Shown here piece by piece: positions 21,890 to 44,747 of a DNA stretch of 64,000 nt. The notes beneath the pieces were generated by a model. The model was not told the origin of the DNA. It saw only the letters and a list, made by a program, of their open reading frames with translations, and made no database searches. The position numbers and the translations under genes were made by a program. The stretch lies in the sequence record OP870146.1; one strand, 5' to 3'. Source of the DNA: Escherichia phage vB_Eco_F27. The stretch's first letter is position 1. Every line of letters begins with the position of its first letter.

Positions 21890-21947
21890 GTTTTACCTCC
21901 AGTAGTTGATAGGTCTATAATAACATAACCGTAGACCTTGTAAACAA

Positions 21948-22235
21948 CTAAAAGAAACTTTTTTCGGTATTTTTTCCACTGAACCAAACAGACTTCGGTA
22001 TTTTCTGTAATTTTTCAGATTTAAGTTTCTCTTCCCGTTCTTTCTTATATACACCCTTGTCGTACTGGAGCATCTCTATGGCATTCTTTTGCAAACGATC
22101 TAAGGTAATTAAGGCTTTAGTTTTTCCTTTCAAGGAAGAGTCCTGGCGAACCTCCTCGCTATATTGCATTGTAGAACTAACCATATGATGAGCATAGAGT
22201 TCGACTGCGGCTTTAATTTTTTGCATAAAATCCAT
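21948..22235 (-). CDS. hypothetical protein
   Basis: 95 aa ORF with AAGAGGA RBS. Confidence 0.4.
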   Translation of the reverse strand: MDFMQKIKAAVELYAHHMVSSTMQYSEEVRQDSSLKGKTKALITLDRLQKNAIEMLQYDKGVYKKEREEKLKSEKLQKIPKSVWFSGKNTEKSFF

Positions 22236-22373
22236 AACATATCCTCTTTGATTTGTACATCATTATTTTTAAATATTTCTATGCCCTAAGTAGGTTCCTG
22301 GTGTCCTTCTTTGAGGTAAGCCATATGATTATTCATCTTTATGGCTTTTGTTACCTCAGAACTTCCTATAAGC

Positions 22374-23375
22374 TTATTTCAGTAAAGTTACTTCAGAGAT
22401 TTCCTCCCAACCATCTTTATCAGTTGAAATAAAATCTGCTACATAAAGAGCCGTACGTAATGATACATTGCGAAGACGAGATACGTTAGCCTTCATCCAG
22501 GACAATGCTTTATACGTTTCTGCATCCGTCAGACCACGTTTCTGCATCATGTCAGTAGATAATATTACATCTTCAACTCGAACCATAATCTCTTCATTAG
22601 AGTGTACTCCAAGGTCGAGATACACTGAACGAGATACTAAAGCTTGAAGGTGCGGAGCAAGTTTCGAACCGCGTTCTAACTCTTTATCGATATCAACGTT
22701 TGTAATGAAAACGATAGTACCTTCAAACTCAAATTCTTTATCAATACCCTTATCATCGAGATAAGATGACGCAGTGCTCCAACAAACTTTGCGTTTATCT
22801 CCGGTATCTAATGCTGCTTTAAGAAGGTTCAAGATGTCCATATCTGAGAATACATCAACGTCGTCGATTAAGAGAACGCTGTCTGCATCACGGTTGAGCC
22901 AAAGTTGTTCGTAAAGGCCAATACCAGAGATTTTACCATTAATGCTTTTGTATTTGATGAAACCATTATCATTAGCATTATTAAGTGCTTTATCCAGAGA
23001 ATACGTCTTACCAATACCGGCTGCACCTGAAATAATGAGTGAACGAATTTTGCCATCGATAATGCCATTCGTCATCATGTTCATTACTTTAAAGCGTTTG
23101 TTGATACGAGTTTTCATATCTTCAGTGCTTTCAACAACTGCAACTGGTGGTGTCTCAACTCCTTCCATTACGATGTCTGATTTGAAGACCCATACTCCAC
23201 GTTCAGAACCATCAATCATAACGAAAATTTTACCATCACCTAAGTGGGAACATTCAGGATTAAGCTTTGCCGGGAACCATGTCTTTGTGGCAACATAAGA
23301 ACCAGAGATTTCGTTATTACGATAGATACCTTTTTTGATTTGAACGTTGAACATTTTATTCTCCAATTTACTCAT
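22374..23375 (-). CDS. P-loop ATPase (nrdC.10-like position)
   Basis: 333 aa; Walker A GAAGIGKT and Walker B LLIDDVD. Confidence 0.7.
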   Translation of the reverse strand: MSKLENKMFNVQIKKGIYRNNEISGSYVATKTWFPAKLNPECSHLGDGKIFVMIDGSERGVWVFKSDIVMEGVETPPVAVVESTEDMKTRINKRFKVMNMMTNGIIDGKIRSLIISGAAGIGKTYSLDKALNNANDNGFIKYKSINGKISGIGLYEQLWLNRDADSVLLIDDVDVFSDMDILNLLKAALDTGDKRKVCWSTASSYLDDKGIDKEFEFEGTIVFITNVDIDKELERGSKLAPHLQALVSRSVYLDLGVHSNEEIMVRVEDVILSTDMMQKRGLTDAETYKALSWMKANVSRLRNVSLRTALYVADFISTDKDGWEEISEVTLLK

Positions 23376-23384
23376 TTCGTTTCG

Positions 23385-23421
23385 ATAGGTCTATAATAAC
23401 ATGTTTAAAGCAAAAGTAAAC
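23385..23421 (-). promoter_or_regulatory. early/middle promoter-like element (GTTTAC -35, MotA-box-like TTTGCTTTA, TATTAT -10)
   Basis: Minus strand reads GTTTACTTTTGCTTTAAACATGTTATTATAGACCTAT upstream of the 22374..23375 start. Confidence 0.5.
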
Positions 23422-23423
23422 AA

Positions 23424-23642
23424 TTATTTGCGACGAGATTTTTTGGTAAGAGGTTGAAAGAACACTGCTTTACCTGCTGGGGATAAGGTGACTCGTAATG
23501 CATTACCGATTCCTAAGGATGCTTTAACTAAACCTTTAGCTTTCAGTTCACCAAATGCTTGACGTTGGTCTGCATCACGAGTGTTAACCATAAGACCTTT
23601 ATCACCTGCTTCACGAATCATTTCTAACATTTTGGTTTTCAT
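23424..23642 (-). CDS. hypothetical small basic protein
   Basis: Start set to the ATG at 23642 (MKTKMLEMIREAG...) preceded by GAGGAGAA. Confidence 0.5.
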   Translation of the reverse strand: MKTKMLEMIREAGDKGLMVNTRDADQRQAFGELKAKGLVKASLGIGNALRVTLSPAGKAVFFQPLTKKSRRK

Positions 23643-23729
23643 TTTGTTCTCCTCTTGTTTTGATAGGTCTATAATAACATATCCTAAAAGCATGTACACT
23701 ACTTTTTAAAAATATTTTAACCCCCTAAA

Positions 23730-23745
23730 GGGACCCGAAGGTCCC
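23730..23745 (-). terminator. GGGACC-TTCG-GGTCCC stem-loop downstream of 23751..24032
   Basis: Perfect 6-bp stem with UUCG loop, seen directly. Confidence 0.5.
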
Positions 23746-23750
23746 CACAT

Positions 23751-24032
23751 TTACTTATCGCACTTAGCAACATAATTAGGCATATCACAGAATACGGAGC
23801 GAGTAACTACTCGGCCCTTTGACCATGCTTCAGTTGCTTGTCCGGCCGTGCTATTAATATAGCTTGATTTGATATTCTCAATACCCTGAGAATGTGATGC
23901 ATTTACCGAACCATTAGAAGGCCCAGAAGACTGGTTACCACCAGCTCCTGCACTACCGCTAGCTGCACCTGTGGTAGCGCCAACAGAGAATGCCATCATT
24001 ACTGCGAATAAACCAATTACTAATTTTTTCAT
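23751..24032 (-). CDS. putative secreted Gly/Ser-rich protein
   Basis: 93 aa; N-terminal signal-peptide-like MKKLVIGLFAVMMAFSVGA. Confidence 0.5.
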   Translation of the reverse strand: MKKLVIGLFAVMMAFSVGATTGAASGSAGAGGNQSSGPSNGSVNASHSQGIENIKSSYINSTAGQATEAWSKGRVVTRSVFCDMPNYVAKCDK

Positions 24033-24063
24033 ATTTACCTCAAGTTAAGGGTTATTTATCTAC

Positions 24064-25053
24064 TTATTTATAGTAAGAATTATGATTTTCGAGATAGACT
24101 TGTTCAAGGAAGTCATCCCAGAAACTCATATCTACTTTTTGTTGCATACCGTTCTTAGTGGCTTGTTCCGATGCTTGTTCAACTTGGTCAACGATATCTT
24201 CTAGGAATTCTTGTACAGTTTTAAACGTATGTTTACCAAGCTTAACATCGAGAATAAATGGAGCATCCTGAAGTGGGTAAACCAGGTCGCCGGTTTTGTA
24301 AATTTCCAATAGTTGAAGTCCACCACGACATGCATGACTCAATGCTTTCCAGTCAATACCTTCGTTGGCTTCTGCCTTACGAGCACGTTCACCATAGTTC
24401 TCTTCCAGTTTAACCAGGATGGCATTGAACTCTTTATTGGTTAACGTGTCTTGGAATTTACGGTCTAACAGATTATAGAATGTTTGCTTACCTGTTTTCT
24501 CGTTTTCGGTTTCAACCCACGAAGCAAATTCACCTACAGGCAGAACATTCTTCATATGTGATAAACGAATTACTGCACCATTATCAAAGTATTGTCCCCA
24601 TTCATTAGAACGTTTAAGGGCTTGACGAAGAACAGCCAGTCGAGAACCCTTGACACCGTATTTAGAAGCTTGCTTACGGACATACCCTAAATAAGATTTC
24701 ATGTTAGTAGTATAGAAACGAGACCTGTTGTCTTGAATATACTTCCACACGTCAGGCAAATCAGATTTAACTACTAGACTTGGTGGAGTGTGAAGCATAT
24801 CTAATGCGACGGTTTCACCATCCGCAGCTAGTTTAAAGAAATATTTGAGACTATACAACTCATGGTCCACGTCGTCTTTTGTGTTCTTAGAAGATGTGTT
24901 ATTCGTGTTCTTGCTCATGTGTTCTTTAACGTTACCGGTCAAGATATCACGAGCATGAGGGACATAAATTTCTTTAAAATCGACGTCAGATTCAGGAGTA
25001 GACGTTCCATAAAGGTGGCTACCAAAGTAGCCTTTCATAATTGTTTTCATCAT
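24064..25053 (-). CDS. Pol-beta-type nucleotidyltransferase-like protein (nrdC.11-like position)
   Basis: 329 aa; GSHLYGTSTPESDVDF fits the G[GS]x9-13DhD nucleotidyltransferase signature. Confidence 0.55.
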   Translation of the reverse strand: MMKTIMKGYFGSHLYGTSTPESDVDFKEIYVPHARDILTGNVKEHMSKNTNNTSSKNTKDDVDHELYSLKYFFKLAADGETVALDMLHTPPSLVVKSDLPDVWKYIQDNRSRFYTTNMKSYLGYVRKQASKYGVKGSRLAVLRQALKRSNEWGQYFDNGAVIRLSHMKNVLPVGEFASWVETENEKTGKQTFYNLLDRKFQDTLTNKEFNAILVKLEENYGERARKAEANEGIDWKALSHACRGGLQLLEIYKTGDLVYPLQDAPFILDVKLGKHTFKTVQEFLEDIVDQVEQASEQATKNGMQQKVDMSFWDDFLEQVYLENHNSYYK

Positions 25054-25523
25054 TTAGCCTTATATTCAAGAGTAGGACAGACTTTTTCTTTACGAGCTTT
25101 AAGGTATTCGCCTATTAATGATTTCTTACGTTCAATAGGCTCAAGTCCATTTTTAATTCGTTCTTGGTTTTGTGCAATGAGCTCAATTTCTTTATAATAT
25201 TTTCTGTCGTTATATTTGTCTAACAACCAAGACGGACCAATTACCAACCCGGTAGCAATAAAAGCCATGACTGCTACAATTAAAACGCCTACACCAATTG
25301 AGGCTGGAACTAATGTCCATAGACTGCTAAAAACAAAGAATTTAGTTAAAATTTCCTGGCCAATGATTGTGACTGCTGCTAAAATCGCAAATCCAATAAT
25401 TGAAACAGCTAATACCGGGATTAGCGTTTTCCAAAAATAAGCACACAACGTTTTCGGACGATTCCATGTACTATTGAACGCGGCATAAATTTTAAAGTGC
25501 CAAGAGTTTTCATTGATAATCAT
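25050..25523 (-). CDS. hypothetical membrane protein
   Basis: 157 aa, two or three hydrophobic helices. Confidence 0.5.
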   Translation of the reverse strand: MIINENSWHFKIYAAFNSTWNRPKTLCAYFWKTLIPVLAVSIIGFAILAAVTIIGQEILTKFFVFSSLWTLVPASIGVGVLIVAVMAFIATGLVIGPSWLLDKYNDRKYYKEIELIAQNQERIKNGLEPIERKKSLIGEYLKARKEKVCPTLEYKAK

Positions 25524-25532
25524 AATAATTCC

Positions 25533-26075
25533 TTATTTCAAAGTTGGGATAATAGAATCGAGATAAGCTTTAAGAGCAACTGCTTCATCTTTGTCTAATG
25601 TAATGATATGTTGACGAAGGTCATCAATTTGGCGAATAACTACGACATCACCGTCTTCATAAGAAGGATTAACGCCTAGGACTGTTGTATAGTCAGGGCG
25701 GTCCTGATTTGTAATAAAAGCATTACGGCATTTAGCCCATTGAAGTTTGGCCTTTTTGGCTGTTTCAGATTCCATTAATTCTTTCACCTTAGTGACGAAT
25801 GTTTTCCAATTATTGATAGAAAGGCATTCATCTTCTGTTTCGATATTAACCCCACTATAAAGACCGTGATAAAAACGAACTTGAAGGTCTTCATCAATGT
25901 TAATTACAGATGCATGGCCGGGCGGATTGAGTTTCAAAATCTTGTCCAGTTCCATAGGAAGAATAGTAACAGCATCATCTTCTTGTGTCAGAACGTAAGC
26001 ATAACCACGTTTTTCGATACATAAATCACCAAACAACTCAGTCGTTTCAATTACAGTTTTCATATTATTCACCAA
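25533..26075 (-). CDS. hypothetical protein
   Basis: 180 aa ORF. Confidence 0.5.
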   Translation of the reverse strand: MVNNMKTVIETTELFGDLCIEKRGYAYVLTQEDDAVTILPMELDKILKLNPPGHASVINIDEDLQVRFYHGLYSGVNIETEDECLSINNWKTFVTKVKELMESETAKKAKLQWAKCRNAFITNQDRPDYTTVLGVNPSYEDGDVVVIRQIDDLRQHIITLDKDEAVALKAYLDSIIPTLK

Positions 26076-26343
26076 TTAAAGTTTCAACAAAATTCACTAA
26101 AGCATTCTGGCAAGCATCAACCTGATTTCTATAAAAATTAAATAAGATCCATCAATTTATTAGCTTGTTCACGAGTCATTTTACCATGCTCGCTTCAATA
26201 AGATTCATTACACCATTTACCATGTTATAGGTAAACATCGGATAATTGTATTGTACTACAACATAAGCGATAAGCAAAAGTTTCATTTTGTTCTCCATTT
26301 GTTTTGGTAGGACTACTATAACATAGTCCTACCAAGTTGTAAA

Positions 26344-26577
26344 CTACCGATTGTGTTTTAAATGTTGATAAAGCTCTTCAACTTGTTTAGGGTCCAAAAC
26401 AATTAAGTCATTTTCTTGACGAAGATAAATCCATCCCTTATCCCCAGGACCATTTTTACAAAACATCACCACCATATCATCATCTTCAGCGCTTTCAGGT
26501 AAAAGTTCAAGTACACCGTCTTCAGATTTTCCAGTATAATCGTAAAGCATAATATCCTCACATAATCTCGTTAACAT
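26344..26577 (-). CDS. hypothetical protein
   Basis: 77 aa ORF. Confidence 0.4.
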   Translation of the reverse strand: MLTRLCEDIMLYDYTGKSEDGVLELLPESAEDDDMVVMFCKNGPGDKGWIYLRQENDLIVLDPKQVEELYQHLKHNR

Positions 26578-26737
26578 ACATTTGCAATTCGGTGTGGGCG
26601 TCAGCCATCTTTTTCATAGCTCTGTTAATGTCGATGTCTCCATCTTCGCAACCATGAGCATTTTCCCAATCAGATACCGCATTAGCGTACTCTTCAATCA
26701 AAAACATTAACTTAGAAATTTTTTCTTTACGTGACAT
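26558..26737 (-). CDS. hypothetical protein
   Basis: Start set to the ATG at 26737 (MSRKEKISKLMF...) after GAGGAGAA. Confidence 0.4.
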   Translation of the reverse strand: MSRKEKISKLMFLIEEYANAVSDWENAHGCEDGDIDINRAMKKMADAHTELQMYVNEIM

Positions 26738-26792
26738 AACGTTCTCCTCTAGTAAGTAAGGTTTACTATAACACAACCTGAGGAGAAGTAAA

Positions 26793-26822
26793 CTGATAGA
26801 TGCCAAAAAGCCCCAACCTTTC
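26793..26822 (-). terminator. intrinsic terminator AGCCCCTTCC-GAAA-GGTTGGGGCT plus U-run, downstream of rI
   Basis: Hairpin and T-run seen directly; same hairpin sequence recurs at 42082-42111. Confidence 0.65.
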
Positions 26823-26838
26823 GGAAGGGGCTAGTAAA

Positions 26839-27141
26839 TTAGATAGATGTAGGCTCTAATTTTATTTTCATGAACTCGGCAAATTGTCTGGCAGTTTTTA
26901 TGCCTTGTTCATGACATTCAAATGCATCATCACAGGGGCTATTTTTGTAATGCTTTGCCATATACTTATAGAATTTTTCAGAATTCTCGACATTTTGAAT
27001 TTCAAACAAAGTATATACGTTTTTAATCCCTGATTCCATAAAGTTATCAAAATATGGGTCGATATATGCAGTACCAACGATAGGAGTTGTTGCTGCAAAA
27101 AACCCCAGCATCGCCATGACAGCTATCGCTCTTAAGGCCAT
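26839..27141 (-). CDS. rI: lysis inhibition regulator rI
   Basis: 100 aa; MALRAIAVMAMLGFF...DPYFDNFMESGIKNVYTLFE...; resembles T4 rI as recalled. Confidence 0.8.
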   Translation of the reverse strand: MALRAIAVMAMLGFFAATTPIVGTAYIDPYFDNFMESGIKNVYTLFEIQNVENSEKFYKYMAKHYKNSPCDDAFECHEQGIKTARQFAEFMKIKLEPTSI

Positions 27142-27153
27142 ATAGGCCTCCTG

Positions 27154-27366
27154 TTAATTTTGGCCAGTATTTATTTTTCGCCTTTGGACGGCCTTAACAT
27201 CTGTGAGGTATTTTTCCAGCTTGCGCTTGCGTGTATAATCAGCTTTAGAACCAGTTTGACGGATATCCTCGTTTAAATGAGAAATAGAATGTCCTAATTC
27301 TCTTCGGATTTCATCCAATTTGGTTACAGTAAGATTACGAAGTTGTCTTTCGTTTAATTGCTGCAT
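27154..27366 (-). CDS. hypothetical protein (rI.1 position)
   Basis: 70 aa ORF. Confidence 0.45.
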
Positions 27367-27393
27367 ATATACCTCTTGGTTAGATATTAGTAT

Positions 27394-27975
27394 TTATAAC
27401 AACCCTGTCAAATCGTTCCAATGCTTCCGGCATAATGACACATATCTATCGGTATCACCAATTTCAATTTGACTGCCATCTGTAATTGGAAGTCCGTCTT
27501 CCGTGACTCTAGCTACCATTGTGGCCTTTTTACCGCAATGACAGACACCTTTAAGTTCAACAAGCTTATCGGCAATAGCCATTAATGCTTGAGAACCTTC
27601 AAATAGATTACCTTTAAAATCTGTTCGTAGTCCATATGCCATTACCGGCACATTGTATACGTCAACAATACGACTAAGTTGATACACCTTTTCAGTAGTT
27701 AAGAACTGAGCTTCGTCAACAAATACGCAGTGAATATCCTTTTGTGCTGCAGCCCATTTATAGAATTCAAAGATATCCATGTCTTTTGTAATTATATTGG
27801 CGTCCTGGCGAATACCAATACGAGAGACTATTTCACCTTTTGAATCGCGAGTATCAATAGCCGGTTTAAGAACTAATACACCCATGCCACGTTCTTTATA
27901 GTTATGTGCGGCAGTAAGTAATGAAGCAGACTTACCAGCGTTCATAGCGGCATAGGTAAAAATTAAACTAGCCAT
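27394..27975 (-). CDS. tk: thymidine kinase
   Basis: 193 aa; P-loop YAAMNAGKS, VFVDEAQF, C-terminal Cys cluster. Confidence 0.92.
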   Translation of the reverse strand: MASLIFTYAAMNAGKSASLLTAAHNYKERGMGVLVLKPAIDTRDSKGEIVSRIGIRQDANIITKDMDIFEFYKWAAAQKDIHCVFVDEAQFLTTEKVYQLSRIVDVYNVPVMAYGLRTDFKGNLFEGSQALMAIADKLVELKGVCHCGKKATMVARVTEDGLPITDGSQIEIGDTDRYVSLCRKHWNDLTGLL

Positions 27976-27984
27976 AAGAGTCCC

Positions 27985-28167
27985 TTATAGTGAATTCACG
28001 TAGTCAATGAGTTCTTGTTCTTTCCTGTCAAATGATTCCAACAATGCTTGATATTCTTCGTCCGTCAAAGGAGCATATTCATCATACGCATTGGTGGCTG
28101 CTTGCTCATCCAATAGGTCATGGATAAGTTCAAACAGTTTAGTTTTCTCTTCTTTAGTCAATTTCAT
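27985..28167 (-). CDS. hypothetical acidic protein (tk.1 position)
   Basis: 60 aa ORF. Confidence 0.4.
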   Translation of the reverse strand: MKLTKEEKTKLFELIHDLLDEQAATNAYDEYAPLTDEEYQALLESFDRKEQELIDYVNSL

Positions 28168-29922: not shown

Positions 29923-29930
29923 GTTTACCT

Positions 29931-30389
29931 CTAGATTTTAATCACTGCTTTAGAAGCTTTTCCTGGTAGTCGTTTACTGTTAATAATAGCCATTCTGCAT
30001 TGAAGAGTCTTCATTTTGAATGCTGGATTTTCGCGACAAACTGTAAGTCCTAACCAAAGATTTCCGTCAGTTATTTCTAAACGGCCTGGACGATACTCGA
30101 CACCTTCGACAAAATCTTCATCAACATCTGGACGGGCCGGCATTGATAAAAATTCTGCAACTTCTTTAACATGATTTTTTACTTTATGAAATAATTCAAA
30201 AACGTAATTCTCATCTATTTCTCTCTGGATGGCACGATCTAAGAGATGTTGAGAATACTTGATATGAAAGCCTGGTAGTCCAAGAGACTTTGCAGCATCT
30301 TTTATACTGGCATTTATTTTGCGGAACTCCGTTTCAAAGATTCGACGGAGTTTATTACGGCGGATAAAAACGTCTGAATTGATAGTCAT
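29931..30389 (-). CDS. regB: RegB site-specific endoribonuclease
   Basis: 152 aa; MTINSDVFIRRNKLRR...FHIKYSQHLLDRAIQREIDENYVFELFHK... matches T4 RegB as recalled. Confidence 0.9.
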   Translation of the reverse strand: MTINSDVFIRRNKLRRIFETEFRKINASIKDAAKSLGLPGFHIKYSQHLLDRAIQREIDENYVFELFHKVKNHVKEVAEFLSMPARPDVDEDFVEGVEYRPGRLEITDGNLWLGLTVCRENPAFKMKTLQCRMAIINSKRLPGKASKAVIKI

Positions 30390-30410
30390 TTTGATTTCTC
30401 CTCTAGTTGA

Positions 30411-30446: not shown

Positions 30447-30449
30447 TGC

Positions 30450-32462: not shown

Positions 32463-32861
32463 TTATTTGTAGGTTTTCATCCAATTCTTGAACAAAGCCG
32501 CGACGTCTTTCTCTTTAACGTTCAGTTTAATGTCCAACATTTTACCGCCCGCTGCTCTCGTTTGACGAATCTTAGCAGTACCGGTTTCACCATTCCACTC
32601 AACATAATATTGCCCAGTGTTCATAGCGATACCGTTGCCAAAGTCTTCGTTATTAGAAGTAGTGAATGCCAACTTCATGGTCTTAGAGACACGGGCCGGC
32701 ATGCCTGTCTGAAGGGCATTACGAACGCGAATAACCTGAGGAGTGGCCTGGGTCAGGTTCTCATTCAGTTCTTCGGTGAACTCTTCAGATTCAAACATCG
32801 CCAAAAGTTCTTTAGATGCAGGAATTACATTCTCTGCGATAAATTCTTTATATGTTTTCAT
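32463..32861 (-). CDS. internal protein-like, with capsid targeting sequence
   Basis: 132 aa starting MKTYKEFIAE, the T4 internal-protein capsid targeting sequence; preceded by a GTTTAC...TGGTATAAT promoter. Confidence 0.6.
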   Translation of the reverse strand: MKTYKEFIAENVIPASKELLAMFESEEFTEELNENLTQATPQVIRVRNALQTGMPARVSKTMKLAFTTSNNEDFGNGIAMNTGQYYVEWNGETGTAKIRQTRAAGGKMLDIKLNVKEKDVAALFKNWMKTYK

Positions 32862-33192: not shown

Positions 33193-33306
33193 TTAGTAAA
33201 TTGATTTACCATAGTATTTGTACCAAGTCGGACGTTGAGCAATTTTTTCATCTAAGCGTGCTTGATTTATCGCAATGGACGCTTCGGACGGGTCATAATT
33301 TCCTCC
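33193..33306 (-). pseudogene. denV: denV (endonuclease V) remnant: start codon plus out-of-frame C-terminal fragment
   Basis: Promoter, RBS GGAGGAAA and ATG ACC CGT (MTR) at 33306 are followed by a stop after 9 codons. The adjacent frame encodes ...[31 protein letters not shown], matching the T4 DenV C-terminus as recalled. Confidence 0.65.
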
Positions 33307-34122: not shown

Positions 34123-34156
34123 AATACCTCCCACGTTTATAGGAGGTATTTATTAC

Positions 34157-34615
34157 TTATAGGAGGGTAGTGAGCACCTTATATAATGATTTGCCCATTA
34201 CATATTCCCATTGAGAAGGTTTAATTAAAGCGAATGCATCAAATTCAGGAATCTGACGTCCGTCTGGGAATGTATGATAGGAATTACAAACACTGTTTCT
34301 GAATTGCTCGTGCTCTACAGGGATGGTATATAGGAACAGATGAATATTCTTATTGTCTGAGTAATGATGTTCACCTAGGTCTTTCAGGAAGGCAGGGTCA
34401 TATTGTGTAAACCCAGTTTCTTCTTCGCATTCACGAATAGCGGCTTCAATAGGAGATTCGCCAGGTTCGACACGGCCTTTAGGAATATCCCACCGATGAG
34501 CTAATGCACCTTTAGGACGAGAACCAGTTACACGGCCCATGAATAATTCTTTATCTTTTGTCATGAAGATAATACCAGCGGACAACTCTTTCACTTTATT
34601 TTTCTTACTCATCAT
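34157..34615 (-). CDS. nudE: Nudix hydrolase
   Basis: 152 aa; Nudix box GRVEPGESPIEAAIRECEEETG. Confidence 0.8.
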   Translation of the reverse strand: MMSKKNKVKELSAGIIFMTKDKELFMGRVTGSRPKGALAHRWDIPKGRVEPGESPIEAAIRECEEETGFTQYDPAFLKDLGEHHYSDNKNIHLFLYTIPVEHEQFRNSVCNSYHTFPDGRQIPEFDAFALIKPSQWEYVMGKSLYKVLTTLL

Positions 34616-37349: not shown

Positions 37350-37377
37350 AATATTTTCCTCGGATTAATTCATTAAC

Positions 37378-37629: not shown

Positions 37630-37679
37630 TTAATTTGATAGGACTACTATAACATAGCCCTATCTTGTTGTAAACTGTT

Positions 37680-37877: not shown

Positions 37878-37886
37878 ATTGTTTCC

Positions 37887-38159: not shown

Positions 38160-38168
38160 AATGATTCC

Positions 38169-38474
38169 TTAGCACAACGCAGAAGACGAAACCCAAGCAC
38201 CTTCAGTAATAACGTAACCATTACCTTCACGCTTAACATCGCCACCATTATTTTCAATTTCATCTTTCATCCACTGGGATACGATTTCACCCTTAGGATA
38301 ATAAGTACGACCACTACCATAATCACCTACAGAAAATGATACGGCATATTGGTCTGCGATCTTTGTTGCTTCTTCTTCGATACGTTCAGCTTGATTCAGA
38401 AGTTTATAAATTGCATCTGAAGCGGATTTGGCATCATTAAACTCTGGTACTTTAATTTCAATAATCTTACTCAT
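38169..38474 (-). CDS. small protein, WVSSSxxC-terminus family (paralog 3)
   Basis: 101 aa ending ...GAWVSSSALC. Confidence 0.45.
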   Translation of the reverse strand: MSKIIEIKVPEFNDAKSASDAIYKLLNQAERIEEEATKIADQYAVSFSVGDYGSGRTYYPKGEIVSQWMKDEIENNGGDVKREGNGYVITEGAWVSSSALC

Positions 38475-38830
38475 TTTCTACATTCCTTAATAAAGTTTTC
38501 GATTGTTTCATTTTCACGTCTAGCTAGGAGTTCATTATAACTAATCGTTTGAGAAGCGTAAACCTTTTTATTTTTCTTGTTGTGGTTTATAAAATCGTAG
38601 TAAAAATAGACTACAGTACAAAATGATGCGATGGATGCAAAGGCTTGGGTATACCGTAAGTCCTGCCATTGGTCTGTGAATCCACCAGTGTTCCCTATAA
38701 ATCCTAACACAACGCCGTCAATAAGAAATCCAACTAATCCAAAGGCAAATCCCATGCCAATACTCATAATAAAAATTAGAATGTTCTCACCAAGAGAAGG
38801 CCATACGGTTAAGAGTTGAGGCTTTTGCAT
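38471..38830 (-). CDS. hypothetical membrane protein
   Basis: 119 aa ORF. Confidence 0.45.
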   Translation of the reverse strand: MQKPQLLTVWPSLGENILIFIMSIGMGFAFGLVGFLIDGVVLGFIGNTGGFTDQWQDLRYTQAFASIASFCTVVYFYYDFINHNKKNKKVYASQTISYNELLARRENETIENFIKECRK

Positions 38831-39234
38831 CTTATTTCCTTAACGAATTCCATAGCTTCTTCATATTCATACTTTTTAACAGCTTCATCATACTGAGCTT
38901 GGGCTTTTGCGCACTGAACTTTCCATTCGCGTACTCGAGCTCTATAATGACGGCCTTGGTGCCAATATCCTGCCCAATTAATAGGCATTAATAAAAATGG
39001 CACAATAAACGGCCCGGCTATAATAAGTAAAAACACTGCATCAGACGATATAACTTCACTAGAATCTAAAACAGCTCCTATAATCATAAAGATTAAAAAT
39101 GCTAAAGCTAAAATAGGGCCAAATAGTACTTCATTTGGGATTAATTTACGTTTGTATTCGTATGCCCAGGGCTTAATTGGCATGTACAGGGTTGGCTTTG
39201 ACATATTCTCTACATTCCATAATAAATTGCTCAA
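38809..39234 (-). CDS. hypothetical membrane protein (start uncertain)
   Basis: 141 aa ORF. Confidence 0.4.
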   Translation of the reverse strand: MSNLLWNVENMSKPTLYMPIKPWAYEYKRKLIPNEVLFGPILALAFLIFMIIGAVLDSSEVISSDAVFLLIIAGPFIVPFLLMPINWAGYWHQGRHYRARVREWKVQCAKAQAQYDEAVKKYEYEEAMEFVKEIRCKSLNS

Positions 39235-39775
39235 GGATTAAATTGTTAGTGAAATTAGGACTAACAACCATAGTTTCATAAAGCGCATCAATAGCACTTA
39301 AAGCATCAACTCTTTTAAGCAAAGGCTTGCCTTCATACATAGTTTCAGAATCGATGATTAACGTAAAGTAATATTTTTTATTATCGACTAGAACTTCCGT
39401 ATCGATATAAAACATATTAGACCTCAGAAGCTTATCTCTAAAACCATAATAATCTTCAGAGCGTTCGCTGATATATTCCCATTCAGTGTTTAAACAACAA
39501 ACAGACCATGTAGGAGCAACGAAATCGGTGAATCTAATATCATGGTCTGCAACTAGTTTAGCAATAGCTCCGATATCATGAATCATAATACCTGGGGCTA
39601 ATAAAGATTTTCTGCTATGGCTAGCCGTTTTCTCAGTAGTCTCATAAGAAGACGACCAGTACCATTTACGTCCAGTTGCAACATATCGTAATGAATCAAC
39701 TAAAGATGTAGGTGGATTTACCTTATCTCGGAACTCTTCGAACATTGAGTCAATATCATTATTTTGGTTTCGCAT
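39173..39775 (-). CDS. hypothetical protein
   Basis: ATG at 39775 (MRNQNNDIDS...) preceded by AAGGAG. Confidence 0.5.
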   Translation of the reverse strand: MRNQNNDIDSMFEEFRDKVNPPTSLVDSLRYVATGRKWYWSSSYETTEKTASHSRKSLLAPGIMIHDIGAIAKLVADHDIRFTDFVAPTWSVCCLNTEWEYISERSEDYYGFRDKLLRSNMFYIDTEVLVDNKKYYFTLIIDSETMYEGKPLLKRVDALSAIDALYETMVVSPNFTNNLILEQFIMECREYVKANPVHAN

Positions 39776-39824
39776 GTTAACTCCTTTATTATCCAAAAGG
39801 AGGACCGGAGTCCTCCGTATTATT

Positions 39825-40418
39825 TTATTTCAAAGAGTTAATATATTCTTGTACATCAGCAGAAGTGGTTTCGACGCCGGCTGGAGTGCCATTGAACGTT
39901 TCAACACGAGTCAGAGTGTCTTCGATATCAACCTTAGTCAGTGCAGCGATTTCAATTACATCATCGGCCGTAGAGATACCAAGGGCATTGGCTGCTCGAG
40001 TTTCACGAATGTATTCGAGTTTGATTGCCAGGTTCTGACGAGCATCGTCAAGTTCAACCACCTTACGAGCAATTTCAATTCGCATAGCGGCATACCCGTC
40101 AGCTTTTGTATTAAGTTGTTCGGCAGTTCGACGATACAGAAGACCAAGCTTAGCATGCATGGTAACATCTTGTCCTTCAGCCAGGAGCTTACGAATTTCA
40201 CGTTCCTTAGAAGCGGCTTGCTTGTTCTTTTCATTAACAAGTTCGCGAATACGTTTTTCTTCATTAATAGATTTAACAGAAGCCGTTTTTAGTTCTTTGA
40301 TTTGGGTAATCAACTTATCTGCAGCTGCGTTATACTGTTCTTCGACAGTCAGATTTTTAGCCATAGCAGTACCAAGTTTAGTGCGGATGAATTCAACAAG
40401 TTTCTTCAGTGTGTTCAT
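39825..40418 (-). CDS. hypothetical coiled-coil protein
   Basis: 197 aa from the ATG at 40418 ([10 protein letters not shown]...). Confidence 0.5.
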
Positions 40419-40488
40419 ATTATTACCTTTCAATTGGTGGTTTATTATCCAACGAGAGCATTATACTCTGCTCTCAAGAGATTGTAAA

Positions 40489-40716
40489 TTATTTTTTAAT
40501 CAAATTGACATAAAACTCGGCGTCTTCCGGGTGCATGCCTTCGCAGTATTCTTCAACCATGAACTTCTTAACAGCTTCATAAGGACCGCTCAGATTAAGC
40601 TCAGTTGTCCAGAACTTGGAATCTTGGACCGAATCGATACGAACTTCAGGGTGACGGTTGCGAATAACTTCTTCAGTGTATTCATAATCAACGACATCAA
40701 TACTAACTGTAGCCAT
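40489..40716 (-). CDS. hypothetical acidic protein
   Basis: 75 aa ORF. Confidence 0.45.
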   Translation of the reverse strand: MATVSIDVVDYEYTEEVIRNRHPEVRIDSVQDSKFWTTELNLSGPYEAVKKFMVEEYCEGMHPEDAEFYVNLIKK

Positions 40717-40763
40717 TTTGTTTCTCCTCTTGATTTGATGTGATTACTATAACATAAACGTAC

Positions 40764-40928
40764 TTAGATGTAAATTATTTCAACGTCACCTTTAGCGGCT
40801 TTATAACCTTCAGCCCAAGATACAACAGAGTTTTTATCCGAGGATTCAAATTCAGGCATTGGACTTTCACCAATATTCACACAGTATGTTTCTTCATTTT
40901 CATCGAACCAAATAATTAAAGTAGTCAT
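40764..40928 (-). CDS. hypothetical small protein (below ORF-track size cut-off)
   Basis: 54 aa MTTLIIWFDENEETYCVNIGESPMPEF... read by hand; GAGGAG RBS and promoter-like element upstream. Confidence 0.35.
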   Translation of the reverse strand: MTTLIIWFDENEETYCVNIGESPMPEFESSDKNSVVSWAEGYKAAKGDVEIIYI

Positions 40929-40996
40929 TTTGTTTACTCCTCTGTAGTTGATAAGTCTATAGTATCACCATCCTTGGTGCTTGTACATCATTATTT

Positions 40997-41302
40997 TTAA
41001 TTTTTCCAACTTAACAACTTGTAGTGTCCTTCATTCATACGTGGTTTATCCCAAGAAATACTAATATATGATTCGCTGTCAATAGAAGTCGCCGGGTTTT
41101 TCTCTACCGTAAGACCTTCACTTTCCAGCCATTCAATAGTATTTGCGCATAAATCAGAAGAACACCTAATCGGAAACCGGCAAGATTTTTCACCTTTAGC
41201 TGCAGTGTTATACATCTTTTCTAAAATACGCTTTTGCACGTTTTTAAAAATAGTTTCAGCAGATTCTTCAGATTTTTTATTCAGTTCAGTGTAAAGACTC
41301 AT
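40997..41302 (-). CDS. hypothetical protein
   Basis: 101 aa ORF. Confidence 0.45.
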   Translation of the reverse strand: MSLYTELNKKSEESAETIFKNVQKRILEKMYNTAAKGEKSCRFPIRCSSDLCANTIEWLESEGLTVEKNPATSIDSESYISISWDKPRMNEGHYKLLSWKN

Positions 41303-41390
41303 AATATTCTCCTCATGTTTTGATAGGTCTATAGTAACACATCTAGGGAAGAAGTAAACAACTTTTTCAGTAAGTTATAAACCCCCTAAT

Positions 41391-41406
41391 GGGGACCGAA
41401 GTCCCC
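41391..41406 (-). terminator. GGGGAC-TTCG-GTCCCC stem-loop downstream of 41412..42038
   Basis: Perfect 6-bp stem with UUCG loop, seen directly. Confidence 0.5.
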
Positions 41407-41411
41407 ATTCT

Positions 41412-42038
41412 TTACTTACGAGTTTTTGCATATTGAGCAGCGTCAGCAGCCAAACGACCTGCCTGACGAAGTTTTTCTTTAATCGCATCGTGAAGTGGTT
41501 GAGTGTACTTCAAACCTTCGATAGTCAAATAAAGACGATAAAGGTCCGGGGTATCAAGGTTGTTGATATGTTGGCCATTACGAAGAATATTGAATTCACG
41601 AACGAGTGAAGATGTATCGGATTCAATATCACGAACAAGCGAAGATAGTTGTTTATATTTTTTTTCCAGACTAGAAGTATCAAACTTAAGAGCAGGAGCT
41701 TTAGGAGTTGCTTTTACTTCAGGCTTAGGCTCAGGTTTTGCTATTGCTTTAGGGGTCGCAGGTTTAGGAATGGAAGGAGTAGGTTTTACTTTAGGCGAAC
41801 CCGATTTAGCAGAAACACCACCACTAACAATATCTTTGAATGCTTTAGAAGCTCTGTAATATTCTTTTTGGCTGGAAGTGTCGATACCGTACATGGCTTG
41901 AACGTTTTTGAAAAACTCTGTACTAGTTTTTGTACCAGAAATAGCATCGTAAGCAGCTTGCCATTTCTCTTTTGTCATACGTACACCGGCTTCGGTGATT
42001 ACTTCCGTTTCGGCTAAAAATTCATTAAAAGTATACAT
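41412..42038 (-). CDS. internal protein-like, capsid targeting sequence variant and Pro/Lys-rich linker
   Basis: 208 aa starting MYTFNEFLAE; TATAAATA late-promoter consensus on the minus strand at 42074-42081. Confidence 0.5.
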   Translation of the reverse strand: MYTFNEFLAETEVITEAGVRMTKEKWQAAYDAISGTKTSTEFFKNVQAMYGIDTSSQKEYYRASKAFKDIVSGGVSAKSGSPKVKPTPSIPKPATPKAIAKPEPKPEVKATPKAPALKFDTSSLEKKYKQLSSLVRDIESDTSSLVREFNILRNGQHINNLDTPDLYRLYLTIEGLKYTQPLHDAIKEKLRQAGRLAADAAQYAKTRK

Positions 42039-42073
42039 CGATGGTCCTTAGAAAGTAGGTTTATTGTTTACTA

Positions 42074-42081
42074 TATTTATA
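42074..42081 (-). promoter_or_regulatory. late promoter consensus TATAAATA
   Basis: Exact match on the minus strand about 36 nt upstream of the ATG at 42038. Confidence 0.5.
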
Positions 42082-42111
42082 CAAAAAAGCCCCAACCTTT
42101 CGGAAGGGGCT
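42082..42111 (-). terminator. intrinsic terminator AGCCCCTTCC-GAAA-GGTTGGGGCT plus U-run
   Basis: Same hairpin sequence as at 26793-26822. Confidence 0.65.
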
Positions 42112-42119
42112 ATATACCT

Positions 42120-42414
42120 TGTCGGGGTTTCCACCTACTAAGGCAAGTGTTTGTACGAAACGCCGGGATTCGAACCCGGTTATTGAGTAGTTGACGCTAC
42201 TCAATATTTTTAAAAGGCCATATCTCGACCATATCCGAACGTTCCGTCAAAAACGCTACTCGGCTTACGGCAAAGATATTTCCTCGAATCGATAATTCGG
42301 TGCGCCGTTTCTGCTGTGATGTAAGGGGATATTAACAAATCGTAAAGATTTATTAAGACCAGTCCTTACTCAGGGAACATCAGTCCGACGACTTACCGGT
42401 AGCGACCCGGCTTC
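42120..42414 (-). ncRNA. candidate structured stable RNA region (tRNA-like T-arm, no full cloverleaf found)
   Basis: No plausible ORF; contains ACCGGGTTCGAATCCCGG (T-arm-like) and a 9-bp hairpin ATTGAGTAG/CTACTCAAT. By position could correspond to T4 stable RNA species. Confidence 0.3.
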
Positions 42415-42759
42415 TTATTTTGGCATATCATCAATTTGCTCTCGACGCCGACGCCATAGATTAATCGCTTCATAAACACATTCTGCGTTTGGTATATGAC
42501 GGCAATAATATAATGATTCGCGTTTCTGGAATCGATGTTGCAATGGGATTTCGTTTAAAAGGTCTTTACGGTCAAAGTATTCAAAACTAGTTAACCCGGA
42601 ACGGTTTTTAATGAACTTCCAATGACCAAATTCATTTTGAACATAGATGTAATCTGCATGTTGGTATAACAAATTAATCAATCGGTCTGAAATAACTGTA
42701 TCATGTTCGTTAAAATAAAACGTTAAATCATGAACTACTAAGTAAACATTACCTTTCAT
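42415..42759 (-). CDS. hypothetical protein inside the tRNA region
   Basis: 114 aa from the ATG at 42759 (MKGNVYLVVHDL...) after GAGGAAAA. Confidence 0.5.
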   Translation of the reverse strand: MKGNVYLVVHDLTFYFNEHDTVISDRLINLLYQHADYIYVQNEFGHWKFIKNRSGLTSFEYFDRKDLLNEIPLQHRFQKRESLYYCRHIPNAECVYEAINLWRRRREQIDDMPK

Positions 42760-42777
42760 ATTTTCCTCACTTAAAAT

Positions 42778-42854
<77 letters not shown>

Positions 42855-42954
42855 ATGATGCGGCTTTGGGTGTTTCAGTGTTACTCGTTTGTAGGTTCTA
42901 CTTTTAACCCTTATTCGAACAACTTACCTACCTAAGAGCGTACTCACCGCGAAT

Positions 42955-43029
42955 TGGTGGCCCTGGCTGGTTTCGATCCAGCTACCTATCAGTTATGAGC
43001 TGACAGCTCTCCCATTGAGCTACAGGGCC
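42955..43029 (-). tRNA. tRNA with CAU anticodon (Ile2-type or Met)
   Basis: Hand-folded: acceptor GGCCCTG/CAGGGCC, D-arm GCTC-AATGGGA-GAGC, anticodon stem GTCAG/CTGAT with loop CTCATAA, T-arm GCTGG-ATCGAAA-CCAGC, encoded CCA. Confidence 0.75.
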
Positions 43030-43125
43030 TAAATAAATTTCTATTATGAAAGGCCCTTGAGGGAGCACCTTTGGTAATAGAGGGTAGATTAATAATAACA
43101 CATAATTCTTAAAGCAAATTACGTT

Positions 43126-43416
43126 TTACCGTACCATATTAATGTAGTTATATTCAATGCAACGTAATTTCAAAGGGTTCTTGAAAATATCATATTCAAG
43201 AGGGCCTTTTTCTGTTTCAATAAAGAAATCAAAGTTAACTGTGTTAAATTTAACGTCTTCACAGAGTAATTTAACTTGTGAAGATGAACGGTCGATATAA
43301 ACCTTTTCAACCTCAAAGATAGTCAGAATACCGTAGTCATTAACCAGTGCTTTAGCTGCACGTTGGTCGCTTTCATATCCGTTCTCAATGGACGATACTT
43401 TAGCATAAAGAATCAT
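43126..43416 (-). CDS. hypothetical protein
   Basis: 96 aa ORF. Confidence 0.45.
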   Translation of the reverse strand: MILYAKVSSIENGYESDQRAAKALVNDYGILTIFEVEKVYIDRSSSQVKLLCEDVKFNTVNFDFFIETEKGPLEYDIFKNPLKLRCIEYNYINMVR

Positions 43417-43775
43417 GAATGTTCCACCATTTCAAAGGTATGAGCATCAACAATATGATACCAGTCAAAATTTTCTTCCGCGTTTTTATAAATTTCGCGA
43501 AGAGCTTCAACAGTTTTTCCTGTAGCAACAAGATCGTCAATACCACCAAGAGGATAACAGTAATAACCAGCAAACAGAAGGAAATTAATAGTTTCTGTAG
43601 GTTCTGGATGCAGAACACCGTTATCGTCTACCACTTCAAAGAAAGTGTAAGAAGGAGTACAAGTTTTAATCCAAGCCCATGCTTGAGCTGCTGAATCAAA
43701 TGGTCTGCGTATCAAACGACAATCAGGGTCTTTAGAAGGATTTGCTTCAAAATCCGCATATACGTGATATTTCAT
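43413..43775 (-). CDS. hypothetical protein
   Basis: ATG at 43775 (MKYHVYADFEANP...) preceded by AAGGTGAG. Confidence 0.5.
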   Translation of the reverse strand: MKYHVYADFEANPSKDPDCRLIRRPFDSAAQAWAWIKTCTPSYTFFEVVDDNGVLHPEPTETINFLLFAGYYCYPLGGIDDLVATGKTVEALREIYKNAEENFDWYHIVDAHTFEMVEHS

Positions 43776-43776
43776 T

Positions 43777-43962
43777 TTACTCACCTTTTGCAATTTTATC
43801 CATAACGATAGCGATTAAGCCGATTAGAAATGCTACTACCAATGAGATAGAGTTTTCAGTTGTTGTCAGTAGTCCACAAATGAATCCTACAAACATCGAA
43901 AAACTAAAAGCCATTGAAGCAATTACTACAGCAACATTACGAATCAGTTCAGCGCGTTTCAT
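43777..43962 (-). CDS. hypothetical small membrane protein
   Basis: ATG at 43962 (MKRAELIRNVAVVIASMAF...) after GGAGAAA. Confidence 0.45.
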   Translation of the reverse strand: MKRAELIRNVAVVIASMAFSFSMFVGFICGLLTTTENSISLVVAFLIGLIAIVMDKIAKGE

Positions 43963-44031
43963 TTTATTTCTCCATTTACTCATTTGTTTTGATAGGACTA
44001 CTATAACATATCCCTATAGGCTTGTATACCT

Positions 44032-44295
44032 TTATTTCAAATATATTGCGTATTTTTTATAGCCACCAGGCTCGTGTCGAAGACCTTTATCATTCGCAAA
44101 ACGTTGAATGTTATTGAACTGATTTTCATCAAGTTCGGATGTGTCAAATATGAAAAAGTTTCGTTTGTTGCCAAGCGTGATATGCGGAGTTAAGTCAATG
44201 TTATACAAATTAAGAATATCAGCAATAACCTGATTGACCGCTTTGTTAATTTTCACACCAGACGATTCTGAGATGAATTCGTTGAAAGTTTTCAT
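44032..44295 (-). CDS. internal protein-like, with capsid targeting sequence (ipI locus)
   Basis: 87 aa from MKTFNEFISE. Confidence 0.55.
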   Translation of the reverse strand: MKTFNEFISESSGVKINKAVNQVIADILNLYNIDLTPHITLGNKRNFFIFDTSELDENQFNNIQRFANDKGLRHEPGGYKKYAIYLK

Positions 44296-44356
44296 TTTAG
44301 GTTCCATTTGGTTGTTTTGATAGGACTACTATAACATAATCCTATCGTGTTGTAAA

Positions 44357-44668
44357 TTATTTTATGCCTTTAGAAGAAATGGTGTTTTGGCGTTTGGTCC
44401 CTGTTTGTGAAAAATCGTGGTTATCGATTTGGTCGACTCGCATAACACCAAATGCAGATTTAATTTTAGCCTTTGAACCTTTTTTGATACTAATTATCAT
44501 ATAAGTATCATTTTTCTTATATTCGAAATTTGTTACTTCAACGCCTTGATTAGAAATTGACTTAATAATAGCATTAGCGTATTCATCATCTAACGGACCG
44601 GTGGTGTTAATAATAAAATTTTTATCGGCTTTAGTAGCTTCAGCGATAAACTCTTGATAAGTTTTCAT
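44357..44668 (-). CDS. internal protein-like, with canonical capsid targeting sequence (ipI locus)
   Basis: 103 aa from MKTYQEFIAE, identical to the T4 internal-protein capsid targeting sequence; the rest of the protein does not match T4 IPI as I recall it. Confidence 0.6.
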   Translation of the reverse strand: MKTYQEFIAEATKADKNFIINTTGPLDDEYANAIIKSISNQGVEVTNFEYKKNDTYMIISIKKGSKAKIKSAFGVMRVDQIDNHDFSQTGTKRQNTISSKGIK

Positions 44669-44747
44669 TTGTTTTTTCCGTTTGGTTTGAGATTTGATAG
44701 GATGATAGTAACACACCATCATCCTTATGTAAACTGTTTTGTGAAAA

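Follow-up and report, generated by a model that had tools for sequence, protein, structure and literature searches.

Between 11 and 45 kb, the minus strand of Escherichia phage vB_Eco_F27 carries about 24 copies of one promoter cassette; positions refer to the 64,000-nucleotide stretch of sequence record OP870146.1 that was analysed as a whole and is called the window here. Judged by homology, these elements are early promoters of an RB69-like phage, read by the host sigma-70 RNA polymerase. About half of them contain inverted repeats, and we consider it probable that the corresponding hairpins act in read-through RNA and that the cassettes serve as recombination junctions as well. The cassette itself was already known, since 20 of 22 early promoter sites predicted in RB69 in 2006 map onto the window at high identity. 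The sequences, statistics, covariation, strand asymmetry, terminator anticorrelation and recombination junction reported below were all obtained by computation. They add that the pairing is general in T-even phages, is kept by covariation, is strand-asymmetric and is depleted behind terminators. A sizeable subclass points to masking of the ribosome-binding site (RBS) in read-through RNA, a predicted extension of known systems.

An early-promoter map of an RB69-like phage is routine annotation and helps to draw transcription units. The map of cassettes also helps to explain how single accessory genes come and go between close relatives. If the discrimination between RNA from a gene's own promoter and read-through RNA is true, it would constitute a testable post-transcriptional layer of immediate-early control in T4-type phages.

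Early promoters of an RB69-like phage

By its sequence the window is a Mosigvirus, an RB69-like T-even phage. Across long stretches its identity with Mosigvirus genomes (G2469, mogra, phi25-307 and HX01 among them) was 95-98%. The minus-strand genes start at the left with regA, 62, 44, 45, 46 and 47 and continue with the tk-regB-e-tRNA-internal-protein region, where the window encodes its own regB (29931-30389). This block ends with genes 57B, 1, 3, 2 and 4 at about 48.3 kb, and plus-strand baseplate genes come next. Gene order and Mosigvirus identity thus place the cassettes within the classical early, hyperplastic part of a T4-type genome.

Cassettes are named here by their upper coordinate, the -35 side, on the minus strand (e.g. 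P23699). Each comprises an A-rich stretch that lies upstream of the -35, the -35 GTTTAC, a spacer of 17-18 nt, TGn-TAnnnT, the motif CCTATCAAAAC at the start site, a GGAG RBS and ATG. The -10 variants following TGT are TATAGT, TATTAT and TACTAT; then come AG(A/T)CCTATCAAAAC, GGAG and an A-rich stretch up to the ATG. With +1 placed by homology to T4 and RB69, the putative start-site region reads AG(A/T)CCT-A(+1)TCAAAAC, and no structure is predicted for the leader of about 28 nt. A preliminary description, made from the letters of this DNA, had reported an element of about 40 bp in front of more than fifteen minus-strand genes. Every position it gave does carry a minus-strand cassette and the recurrence stands, but the conserved stretch is longer, about 70 bp from -35 to ATG. 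Its second family, GAGAGCA-GAGTATAAT-GCTCTC, is equally real, with an exact match of 27 nt between the two copies P11241 and P40489.

The recurrence was far above expectation. With up to 2 mismatches, the 15-mer TATWRTAGWCCTATC had 13 matches, 12 of them on the minus strand, against 0.93 expected, and none of 100 shuffles reached 13. A profile built on 19 aligned copies, spanning 15 nt upstream of the -35 to just beyond the ATG, retrieved 22 copies at E<1e-4, 19 of which were the seeds. These copies lie between 11.2 and 44.7 kb, on the minus strand throughout and all inside the early region from gene 47 to gene 57B. An ATG follows each profile match at 22-59 nt (mostly 27-32 nt), and the orientation is that of the early genes. 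A rule-based scan that left out the downstream motif (GTTTAC with up to 1 mismatch, N16-18, TAnnnT, Shine-Dalgarno sequence (SD) and ATG within 50 nt) found 20 cassettes. A generic sigma-70 scan did not discriminate, with 70 and 79 sites where 73 and 62 were expected; the T4-specific profile alone did.

Nolan et al. 2006 (Virol J 3:30) predicted 58 early promoters (Pe) in RB69, with C favoured at -3 to -1. Since the GenBank records of T4 (NC_000866, AF158101) and RB69 (NC_004928) are without promoter features, site coordinates were taken from Additional File 3 of that paper, and the 22 sites within 48-78 kb of RB69 were extracted. The 20 that map into the window do so at 88-100% identity (17 at 96% or more), and 19 correspond to cassettes listed in Table 1. 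They cover 13 of the 14 first-family positions of the preliminary description and its second-family copy at 40445. From -24 to +16 the consensus of the window is.Ta.gg.TaTGTTATaaTagtCCTATCaAAtcaaaagga, that of T4 tgTGgTAttATa....tAtcaa; TGnTAnnnT...ATCAA is common to both, and CCTATC is stronger in the window than in T4, in agreement with the remark of Nolan et al. on C at -3 to -1. T4 counterparts with the same architecture and a weaker start-site motif stand upstream of regB, denV, ipI, ipII and ipIII. The regB promoter of the window is the positional match of T4 PregB, and the regB promoter is described in a review as a typical early promoter. Reviews present T4 early promoters as UP/-35/TGn/-10 plus "additional regions of consensus". 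The Mosigvirus identity, the mapped RB69 sites and T4 positional counterparts such as PregB all support the earlier suggestion of T4-type early promoters. A comparison with the T4 early promoter consensus had been proposed as a check, and here the architecture agrees while the start motif is the stronger one in the window. The literature was searched for a global map of transcript 5' or 3' ends in T4 or RB69, and none was found.

The same description had also noted MotA-box-like TGCTTTA sequences in some copies. In MotA middle promoters, the box (a/t)(a/t)TGCTT(t/c)A has its centre near -30 and stands 11-13 bp before the -10. In P23421 and P23699 the TGCTTTA-like box ends 7-8 nt before the -10 (TATTAT), which does not agree with a MotA box. 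Correctly spaced MotA-type candidates were found elsewhere, at 43116, 8963, 5730, 21363 and 16828. The first of these (TGCTTTA, N12, TATTAT) precedes the genes for tRNA-Arg (UCU) and tRNA-Met (CAU) within 42778-43029; an Rfam scan gave two tRNAs and no other match.

Hairpins embedded in the promoters

In 13 of the 24 cassettes the spacer pairs with the cassette's own downstream sequence, in stems of 7-14 pairs. Nine stems are perfect (7-14 bp), three have 10 pairs with one interior non-Watson-Crick pair, and one is nested (Table 1). Two geometries can be distinguished. In class A the stem brackets the -10, its 5' arm occupying -24 to -16 and its 3' arm -7 to +2, and the RBS stays free. In class B (P30446, P33353, P26793, P12368 and P32462), a geometry that the preliminary description had missed, the 5' arm directly follows the -35 and is an anti-SD sequence, and the 3' arm is the RBS itself.

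The perfect inverted repeats first seen in several copies are real and beyond chance (permutation p<=0.001). The longest stem formed by a cassette with itself had a mean of 6.4 bp in the window, against 4.7 bp when spacers and downstream sequences were cross-paired (p<=0.001), and stems of at least 8 bp occurred in 6 of 20 cassettes versus 5.8% of cross-pairs (p<=0.001). The corresponding means were 5.8 against 4.3 in T4 and 6.9 against 4.8 in HX01, both at p<=0.001. When the segment from -35 to ATG was folded, 11 of 16 cassettes gave z values of -2.2 to -4.9, with free energies (dG) of -12 to -22 kcal/mol.

For a broader sample, 148 unique promoters were collected from the window, T4, HX01, AV109 and 16 viral contigs, irrespective of pairing. 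The contigs were sampled as 20-kb regions around regB, because IMG/VR, when scanned with a class A pattern whose 5' arm was left free, had given 5 loci, too few for a study of variation. In the fixed class A register that opposes -16-k and -7+k, 43% of the positions were Watson-Crick pairs compared with 35% for shuffled partners, and none of 1000 shuffles reached the observed value. Slid registers of the same promoters gave 21-32%. The excess in this sample, together with that in T4 and HX01, indicates a general property of T-even early promoters that is not specific to the window. As 11 of the 24 cassettes are without a convincing hairpin, the hairpin does not belong to the core promoter. Nor is the geometry restricted to early promoters, since the middle-promoter-like site at 5673-5731 also has a bracketed -10.

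The 5' arm lies upstream of +1, so that the transcript of the promoter itself cannot fold the hairpin; only RNA reading through from upstream can. With one exception, own transcripts indeed gave folding energies between 0 and -5.5 kcal/mol, whereas read-through RNA reached -22. Eight regB promoter sequences, drawn from 5 lineages and differing in their inner stems, have every base of the GGAG paired (4 of 4); the one distant relative without this hairpin has a terminator directly upstream. A compensatory change of C-G to T-A separates the T4 promoters 20612 and 57990. The 3' arm of P26344 reads CCTACC in the window and CCTATC in RB69, which turns a G·U into a G-C pair. Where P40489 has GAGAGCA/TGCTCTC, the T4 promoter upstream of motB has GGGACCA/TGGTCCC. 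Among 59 unique stems the interior non-Watson-Crick pairs were 17 G·T, 3 A·C and 4 others (p=0.003). Finally, of the 26 promoters that have a terminator-like hairpin no more than 90 nt upstream, 5 contained an embedded hairpin, against 74 of the 135 that have none upstream (p=0.001).

Arms that vary while their complementarity is kept, the G·U bias and the depletion behind terminators point to hairpins in the read-through sense RNA and not to a DNA operator. None of the three observations is explained by a double-stranded operator or a cruciform, and a neutral by-product accounts for neither the covariation nor the terminator depletion. The preliminary description had left room for RNA-level or protein-binding control. 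The former is plausible with the correction that read-through RNA, and not the promoter's own transcript, can form the hairpin. The latter is disfavoured by these same data.

G+C-rich intergenic hairpins with UUCG or CCGG-type loops were observed at 23735-23760, 41388-41409 and 39799-39816. The first two lie directly upstream of the AGACCTATCAAAAC-type cassettes P23699 and P41359, whose own folds are at shuffle level.

Recombination junctions and individual cassettes

Exact matches between cassettes extend up to 27 nt, and such shared repeats would let the cassettes act as crossover points at which single genes are added or removed. Synteny breakpoints fell in cassettes in 13 of 43 cases against HX01 and in 4 of 16 against AV109, where 6% were expected, i.e. 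about five times the expectation. An open reading frame (ORF) of unknown function at 23424-23642 (72 aa, phrog_6001) lies between P23699 and P23421 in the window, AV109 and RB69 and is absent from HX01. HX01 has instead a single chimeric cassette, the 5' half of which is P23699 and the 3' half P23421, with the crossover within the shared ATGTTATTATAGACCTATC. This chimera is an unambiguous case of recombination between cassettes.

A breakpoint at 33288-33300 was considered as a further cassette crossover and rejected, since it is an internal deletion in denV with microhomology. The 298 bp carried by HX01 and AV109 are missing from the window (33193-33300), the overlap at the junction is about 13 nt, and the ORF following P33353 has 9 codons only (MTRPKRPLR); denV is truncated and, from its sequence, appears inactivated.

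Other differences between these genomes were noted away from the cassettes. A segment of about 1 kb (15159-16202) with a 254-aa ORF (15185-15949) is absent from HX01 and has no cassette at either junction; it may be a homing-endonuclease-type insertion. Between genes 2 and 4, in turn, HX01 has gained 676 bp with a homing-endonuclease annotation that the window (47734-47764) lacks. AV109 is without a 2.8-kb block, 38205-41041, that holds six ORFs, whole or in part, between 38169 and 40928 and the cassettes P40988, P40775, P40489 and P38563; its junctions lie outside cassettes.

Three cassettes precede genes that start with MKTYQEFIAE, MKTFNEFISE or MKTYKEFIAE, and two of these genes match internal-head-protein families. 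All cassettes and candidates are collected in Table 1. An unusual -35 region, AATGATGTACAA, occurs in three minus-strand copies, at about 22262, 20307 and 40988. No -10 follows the copy at 22262, and the RBS and ATG of ORF 21948-22235 come directly; this element looks like a degraded or truncated cassette.

Table 1. Promoter cassettes and candidate sites in the window, all on the minus strand, with predicted hairpins (dG in kcal/mol)
Name	Position	RB69 site	Hairpin class and arms	dG	z	Remarks
P44734	44666..44734 (-)	Pe:77187	A, perfect; arms 44718-44725 and 44699-44706 (AGGATGAT/ATCATCCT)	-15.7	-3.3	upstream of internal head protein gene 44357-44668
P44357	44293..44357 (-)	Pe:76812	A, 10 pairs with one interior G·U; arms 44337-44346 and 44319-44328		-3.35	upstream of internal head protein gene 44032-44295
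P44029	43960..44029 (-)	Pe:76459	weak stem only			-35 GTATAC; -35 is an HX01 synteny breakpoint
P41359	41300..41359 (-)		not significant		+0.3	UUCG-loop terminator-like hairpin directly upstream, 41388-41409
P40988	40926..40988 (-)	Pe:72567				-35 ATGTAC; -10 TACTAT, then AGACTTATC
P40775	40714..40775 (-)	Pe:72354	none
P40489	40416..40489 (-)	Pe:72069	A, perfect; GAGAGCA/TGCTCTC around TATAAT		-2.66	second family
P38563	38472..38563 (-)	Pe:70143	none			weaker candidate; long leader
P37675	37615..37675 (-)	Pe:69254 (100% identical)	A, 10 pairs with one interior G·U	-16.1	-3.15
P36380	36320..36380 (-)	Pe:67959	A, perfect 9 bp; ATAGGACTA/TAGTCCTAT		-3.32
P33353	33294..33353 (-)	Pe:64934	B, perfect; anti-SD TTCCTCCAAG with CTTGGAGGAA, RBS inside the latter	-19.1	-4.19	denV promoter
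P32922	32859..32922 (-)	Pe:64193	none		-0.3	upstream of internal-protein-like gene 32463-32861 (MKTYKEFIAE start)
P32462	32399..32462 (-)		B, nested; AATTGTGA/TCATAATT and CTCC/GGAG	about -20		T4 ipII and ipIII have similar promoters upstream; synteny with HX01 and with AV109 breaks at the -35
P30446	30387..30446 (-)	Pe:61376 (100% identical)	B, perfect 14 bp; TTCTCCTCTAGTTG/CAACTAGAGGAGAA, GGAG RBS buried	-21.6	-4.93	regB promoter
P26793	26735..26793 (-)	Pe:58138	B, perfect 8 bp; TTCTCCTC/GAGGAGAA		-1.5	fold alone not significant
P26344	26284..26344 (-)	Pe:57689	A, perfect 12 bp; TTGGTAGGACTA/TAGTCCTACCAA	-20.6	-4.69
P23699	23640..23699 (-)	Pe:55296 (100% identical)	none		-0.15	5' partner of HX01 junction; preceded by UUCG-loop terminator-like hairpin near 23735-23760
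P23421	23352..23421 (-)	Pe:55018	none			mis-spaced TGCTTTA in spacer; 3' partner of HX01 junction
P21945	21887..21945 (-)	Pe:53683	A, perfect 7 bp; AGGTCTA/TAGACCT		-0.37	fold alone not significant
P20307	20247..20307 (-)	Pe:52042 and Pe:51019				-35 ATGTAC, -10 TATAAT; 970-bp insertion here in HX01
19327	19267..19327 (-)		none			early promoter candidate, GTTTAC N18 TATAAT
17922	17841..17922 (-)	Pe:48639	none			early promoter candidate; T4 counterpart at 47452
P12368	12309..12368 (-)		B-like, 10 pairs with one interior A·A; TCCTC...GAGGA plus TAGATG/CATCTA	-12	-2.7
P11241	11172..11241 (-)		perfect; TGAGAGCA/TGCTCTCA around TATAAT		-2.2	second family; 296-bp HX01 insertion at -35
5731	5673..5731 (-)		perfect 7 bp; ATGTGGT/ACCACAT flanks -10		-3.54	MotA-type middle-promoter-like site, CGCTTTA, N12, TATAAT

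Proposed function, rival explanations and known systems

We propose that each cassette would provide one small accessory gene with an immediate-early burst of expression. In about half of the cassettes, the part of the spacer that is not contacted would have evolved complementarity to the sequence downstream of the -10, such that RNA reading through from an upstream promoter would fold into a hairpin of -14 to -22 kcal/mol and the promoter's own transcript would stay unstructured. In class B the RBS would be buried on read-through RNA, and the gene would not be translated there, or would be translated only via coupling to the upstream ORF. In most cassettes an upstream stop codon is separated from the 5' arm by 9-25 nt, which makes such translational coupling an alternative outcome. 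RegB is blocked by RNA structure, and the GGAG of read-through RNA should be shielded from it as well. For class B, translation and access of RegB are therefore both predicted to be confined to the gene's own immediate-early transcript. This masking of the RBS is the sole hairpin effect that we can name with any confidence, for class B only, and it too is a prediction from sequence. Our preferred guess for class A would be a hairpin at the cistron boundary that protects or insulates neighbouring cistrons in polycistronic RNA. Candidate roles would be protection of the 3' end of the upstream cistron, a block to 5'-to-3' decay after a cut by RegB, and, as the main alternative, attenuation.

A wider claim would be that promoter-embedded hairpins are a general, selected device of T-even phages that reports where a transcript started. 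We find this possible but put it forward very tentatively. If true, ribosomes and RegB would have access to a gene only on RNA from its own early promoter; on read-through RNA, class B hairpins would mask it and class A hairpins would fence it off at the boundary. The pulse received by accessory genes would in that case be strictly immediate-early, and genes downstream on long transcripts would be spared. A post-transcriptional component would also be added to the unexplained early shut-off.

The stem-loops might instead be attenuators or terminators for polymerase coming from upstream, which would limit the build-up of read-through along tandem promoters. This was the function originally proposed for the stem-loops of PeSL (promoter-early stem-loop) cassettes, and one RB49 PeSL stem-loop is reported to have lowered the expression of lacZ downstream of it to about the same extent as the rrnB T1 terminator does (Arbiol et al. 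2010). Embedded hairpins and separate upstream terminators are also nearly mutually exclusive, as would be expected if they did the same job. The RB49 stems tested were G/C-rich, whereas those of the cassettes are AT-rich. No cassette hairpin is followed by a U tract (CAAAAC follows in class A), on which ground a reading of the stems as intrinsic terminators was rejected, and none appeared in either of two terminator scans. A terminator would moreover not need the specific pairing of class B with GGAG, which is kept across lineages. We hence regard attenuation as rather unlikely, although less so than the remaining two explanations. One of these takes the inverted repeats as functionless by-products of cassette copying, recombination and templated quasi-palindrome correction, beside a selected promoter. 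Templated quasi-palindrome mutations are documented in T4, the cassettes are paralogous and exchange sequence, and several class A copies of the window are simply duplicates of one another. Orthologous promoters across genera nevertheless keep the pairing with different arms (regB, internal-protein genes), the pairing exceeds both cross-paired and slid controls in the unbiased set of 148 promoters, and a depletion behind terminators is not expected of neutral repeats. This explanation is improbable in our view.

The other explanation would have the palindromes act in DNA, as an operator for a dimeric phage protein or as a cruciform at the -10, and shut off the early promoters a few minutes after infection. 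Here class A has its axis of symmetry on the extended -10, in the manner of a classical operator, and six copies of the window share the arms ATAGGACTA/TAGTCCTAT. According to reviews, early-promoter shut-off in T4 needs neither AsiA nor ModA and its mechanism is not understood, and a DNA device could account for it. The arms differ freely among copies and phages with complementarity kept, indicating that structure matters over sequence recognition; a sequence-specific operator was rejected on this ground. The prevalence of G·T over A·C mismatches breaks the two-strand symmetry that a cruciform or operator needs, and a cruciform would not readily extrude with the 17-30 nt loops of class B. A device in DNA should also be independent of upstream terminators, and half of the early promoters have no palindrome at all. 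Action in DNA is in consequence very improbable.

Several points weigh against hairpins acting in read-through RNA and against the cassettes as junctions. Eleven of the 24 cassettes have no convincing hairpin, and class A hairpins avoid the RBS, so that no function can be assigned to them with confidence. The excess of G·T shrinks to about 12-13 versus 3 A·C once orthologous duplicates are removed, and it could be inflated if the mutation spectrum is biased between the strands. An attenuator would account equally well for the anticorrelation with upstream terminators. Strong RegB sites were present in 40% of class A, 15% of class B and 32% of the cassettes without hairpin, and site strength was not clearly different between the hairpin classes; a specific association of class A hairpins with RegB sites was accordingly not supported. 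The breakpoint enrichment is confounded, as cassettes are intergenic, where insertions and deletions are tolerated anyway. Promoter activity and +1, for their part, are inferred from homology with T4 and RB69, and the effects of the hairpins are predictions.

Compared with the T4-type early promoters of T4 and RB69 (Nolan et al. 2006), the cassettes have the same -35, spacer, TGn, -10 and A-rich upstream region, the same conserved start region with C at -3 and -2, and the same orientation and position before early genes. There is no essential difference, apart from a start motif CCTATCAAAAC that is stronger in the window than the tATCAA of T4. Pairing between spacer and downstream sequence was not discussed by Nolan et al.

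The design of promoter plus stem-loop belongs to the published PeSL concept. PeSL cassettes were described in the pairs RB49/phi1, PST/T4 and nt-1/KVP40 (Arbiol et al. 2010; Comeau et al. 2014), with the stem-loop mostly between -35 and -10 or overlapping the -10 (PMC2839356). PeSL-like elements at T-even internal-protein loci are credited by Arbiol et al. 2010 to Repoila et al. 1994. The same composite of AT-rich region, early promoter, stem-loop, RBS and ATG is found in 13 of the 24 cassettes. They share the position of the stem-loop, the clustering in hyperplastic regions, the flanking of single accessory genes including internal-protein genes, and crossovers inside the cassette, as in the HX01 chimera that removed ORF 23424-23642. 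Differences concern the stems: those of RB49 have poly-G/poly-C, whereas the AT-rich stems of the window do not, and unlike a terminator they have no U tract, which makes the terminator role proposed for PeSL doubtful. The anti-SD subclass and the G·U asymmetry do not figure in those portions of the published PeSL description that were considered.

The RBS often stands in the A-rich context of a RegB/S1 cleavage site (GGAGAAYAAAA). As in the RegB/S1 sites of T4 early RBSs (Durand et al. 2006, 11-nt site), many cassettes have GGAG followed by an AAYAAAA-like sequence, e.g. GGAGAATAAAATG at 23421 and GGAGAACAAAATG at 26344 and 23699. The full 11-nt fit is found in only about one third to one half of the cassettes, and these are candidate sites.

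For T4 e, soc, 49 and I-TevI, the proximal promoter starts inside the helix that masks the RBS on longer transcripts (Uzan and Miller 2010); this promoter-in-hairpin paradigm is reviewed for gene e in PMC3014915. In the window, the leader of gene e (34125-34165, minus strand) has the classic hairpin, with ATACCTCC paired with GGGAGGTAT over the RBS, and late-promoter-like TATAA boxes in and before the 5' arm, as in T4 gene e. The geometry of class B is of the gene e type, with the 5' arm located ahead of the start and the RBS covered by the 3' arm, and covariation is seen at regB. As in the T4 cases, the 5' strand of the helix is upstream of the proximal start, so that long transcripts would be masked and the proximal one open. 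In those genes, however, the internal promoter is late and the masked RNA early or middle, whereas here the internal promoter is early. The predicted outcome is thus reversed in time, with translation in the first minutes only. If embedded hairpins do report where a transcript started, a principle known from a few late-promoter cases, those of genes e, soc, 49 and I-TevI, would apply to a large part of the early promoters as well.

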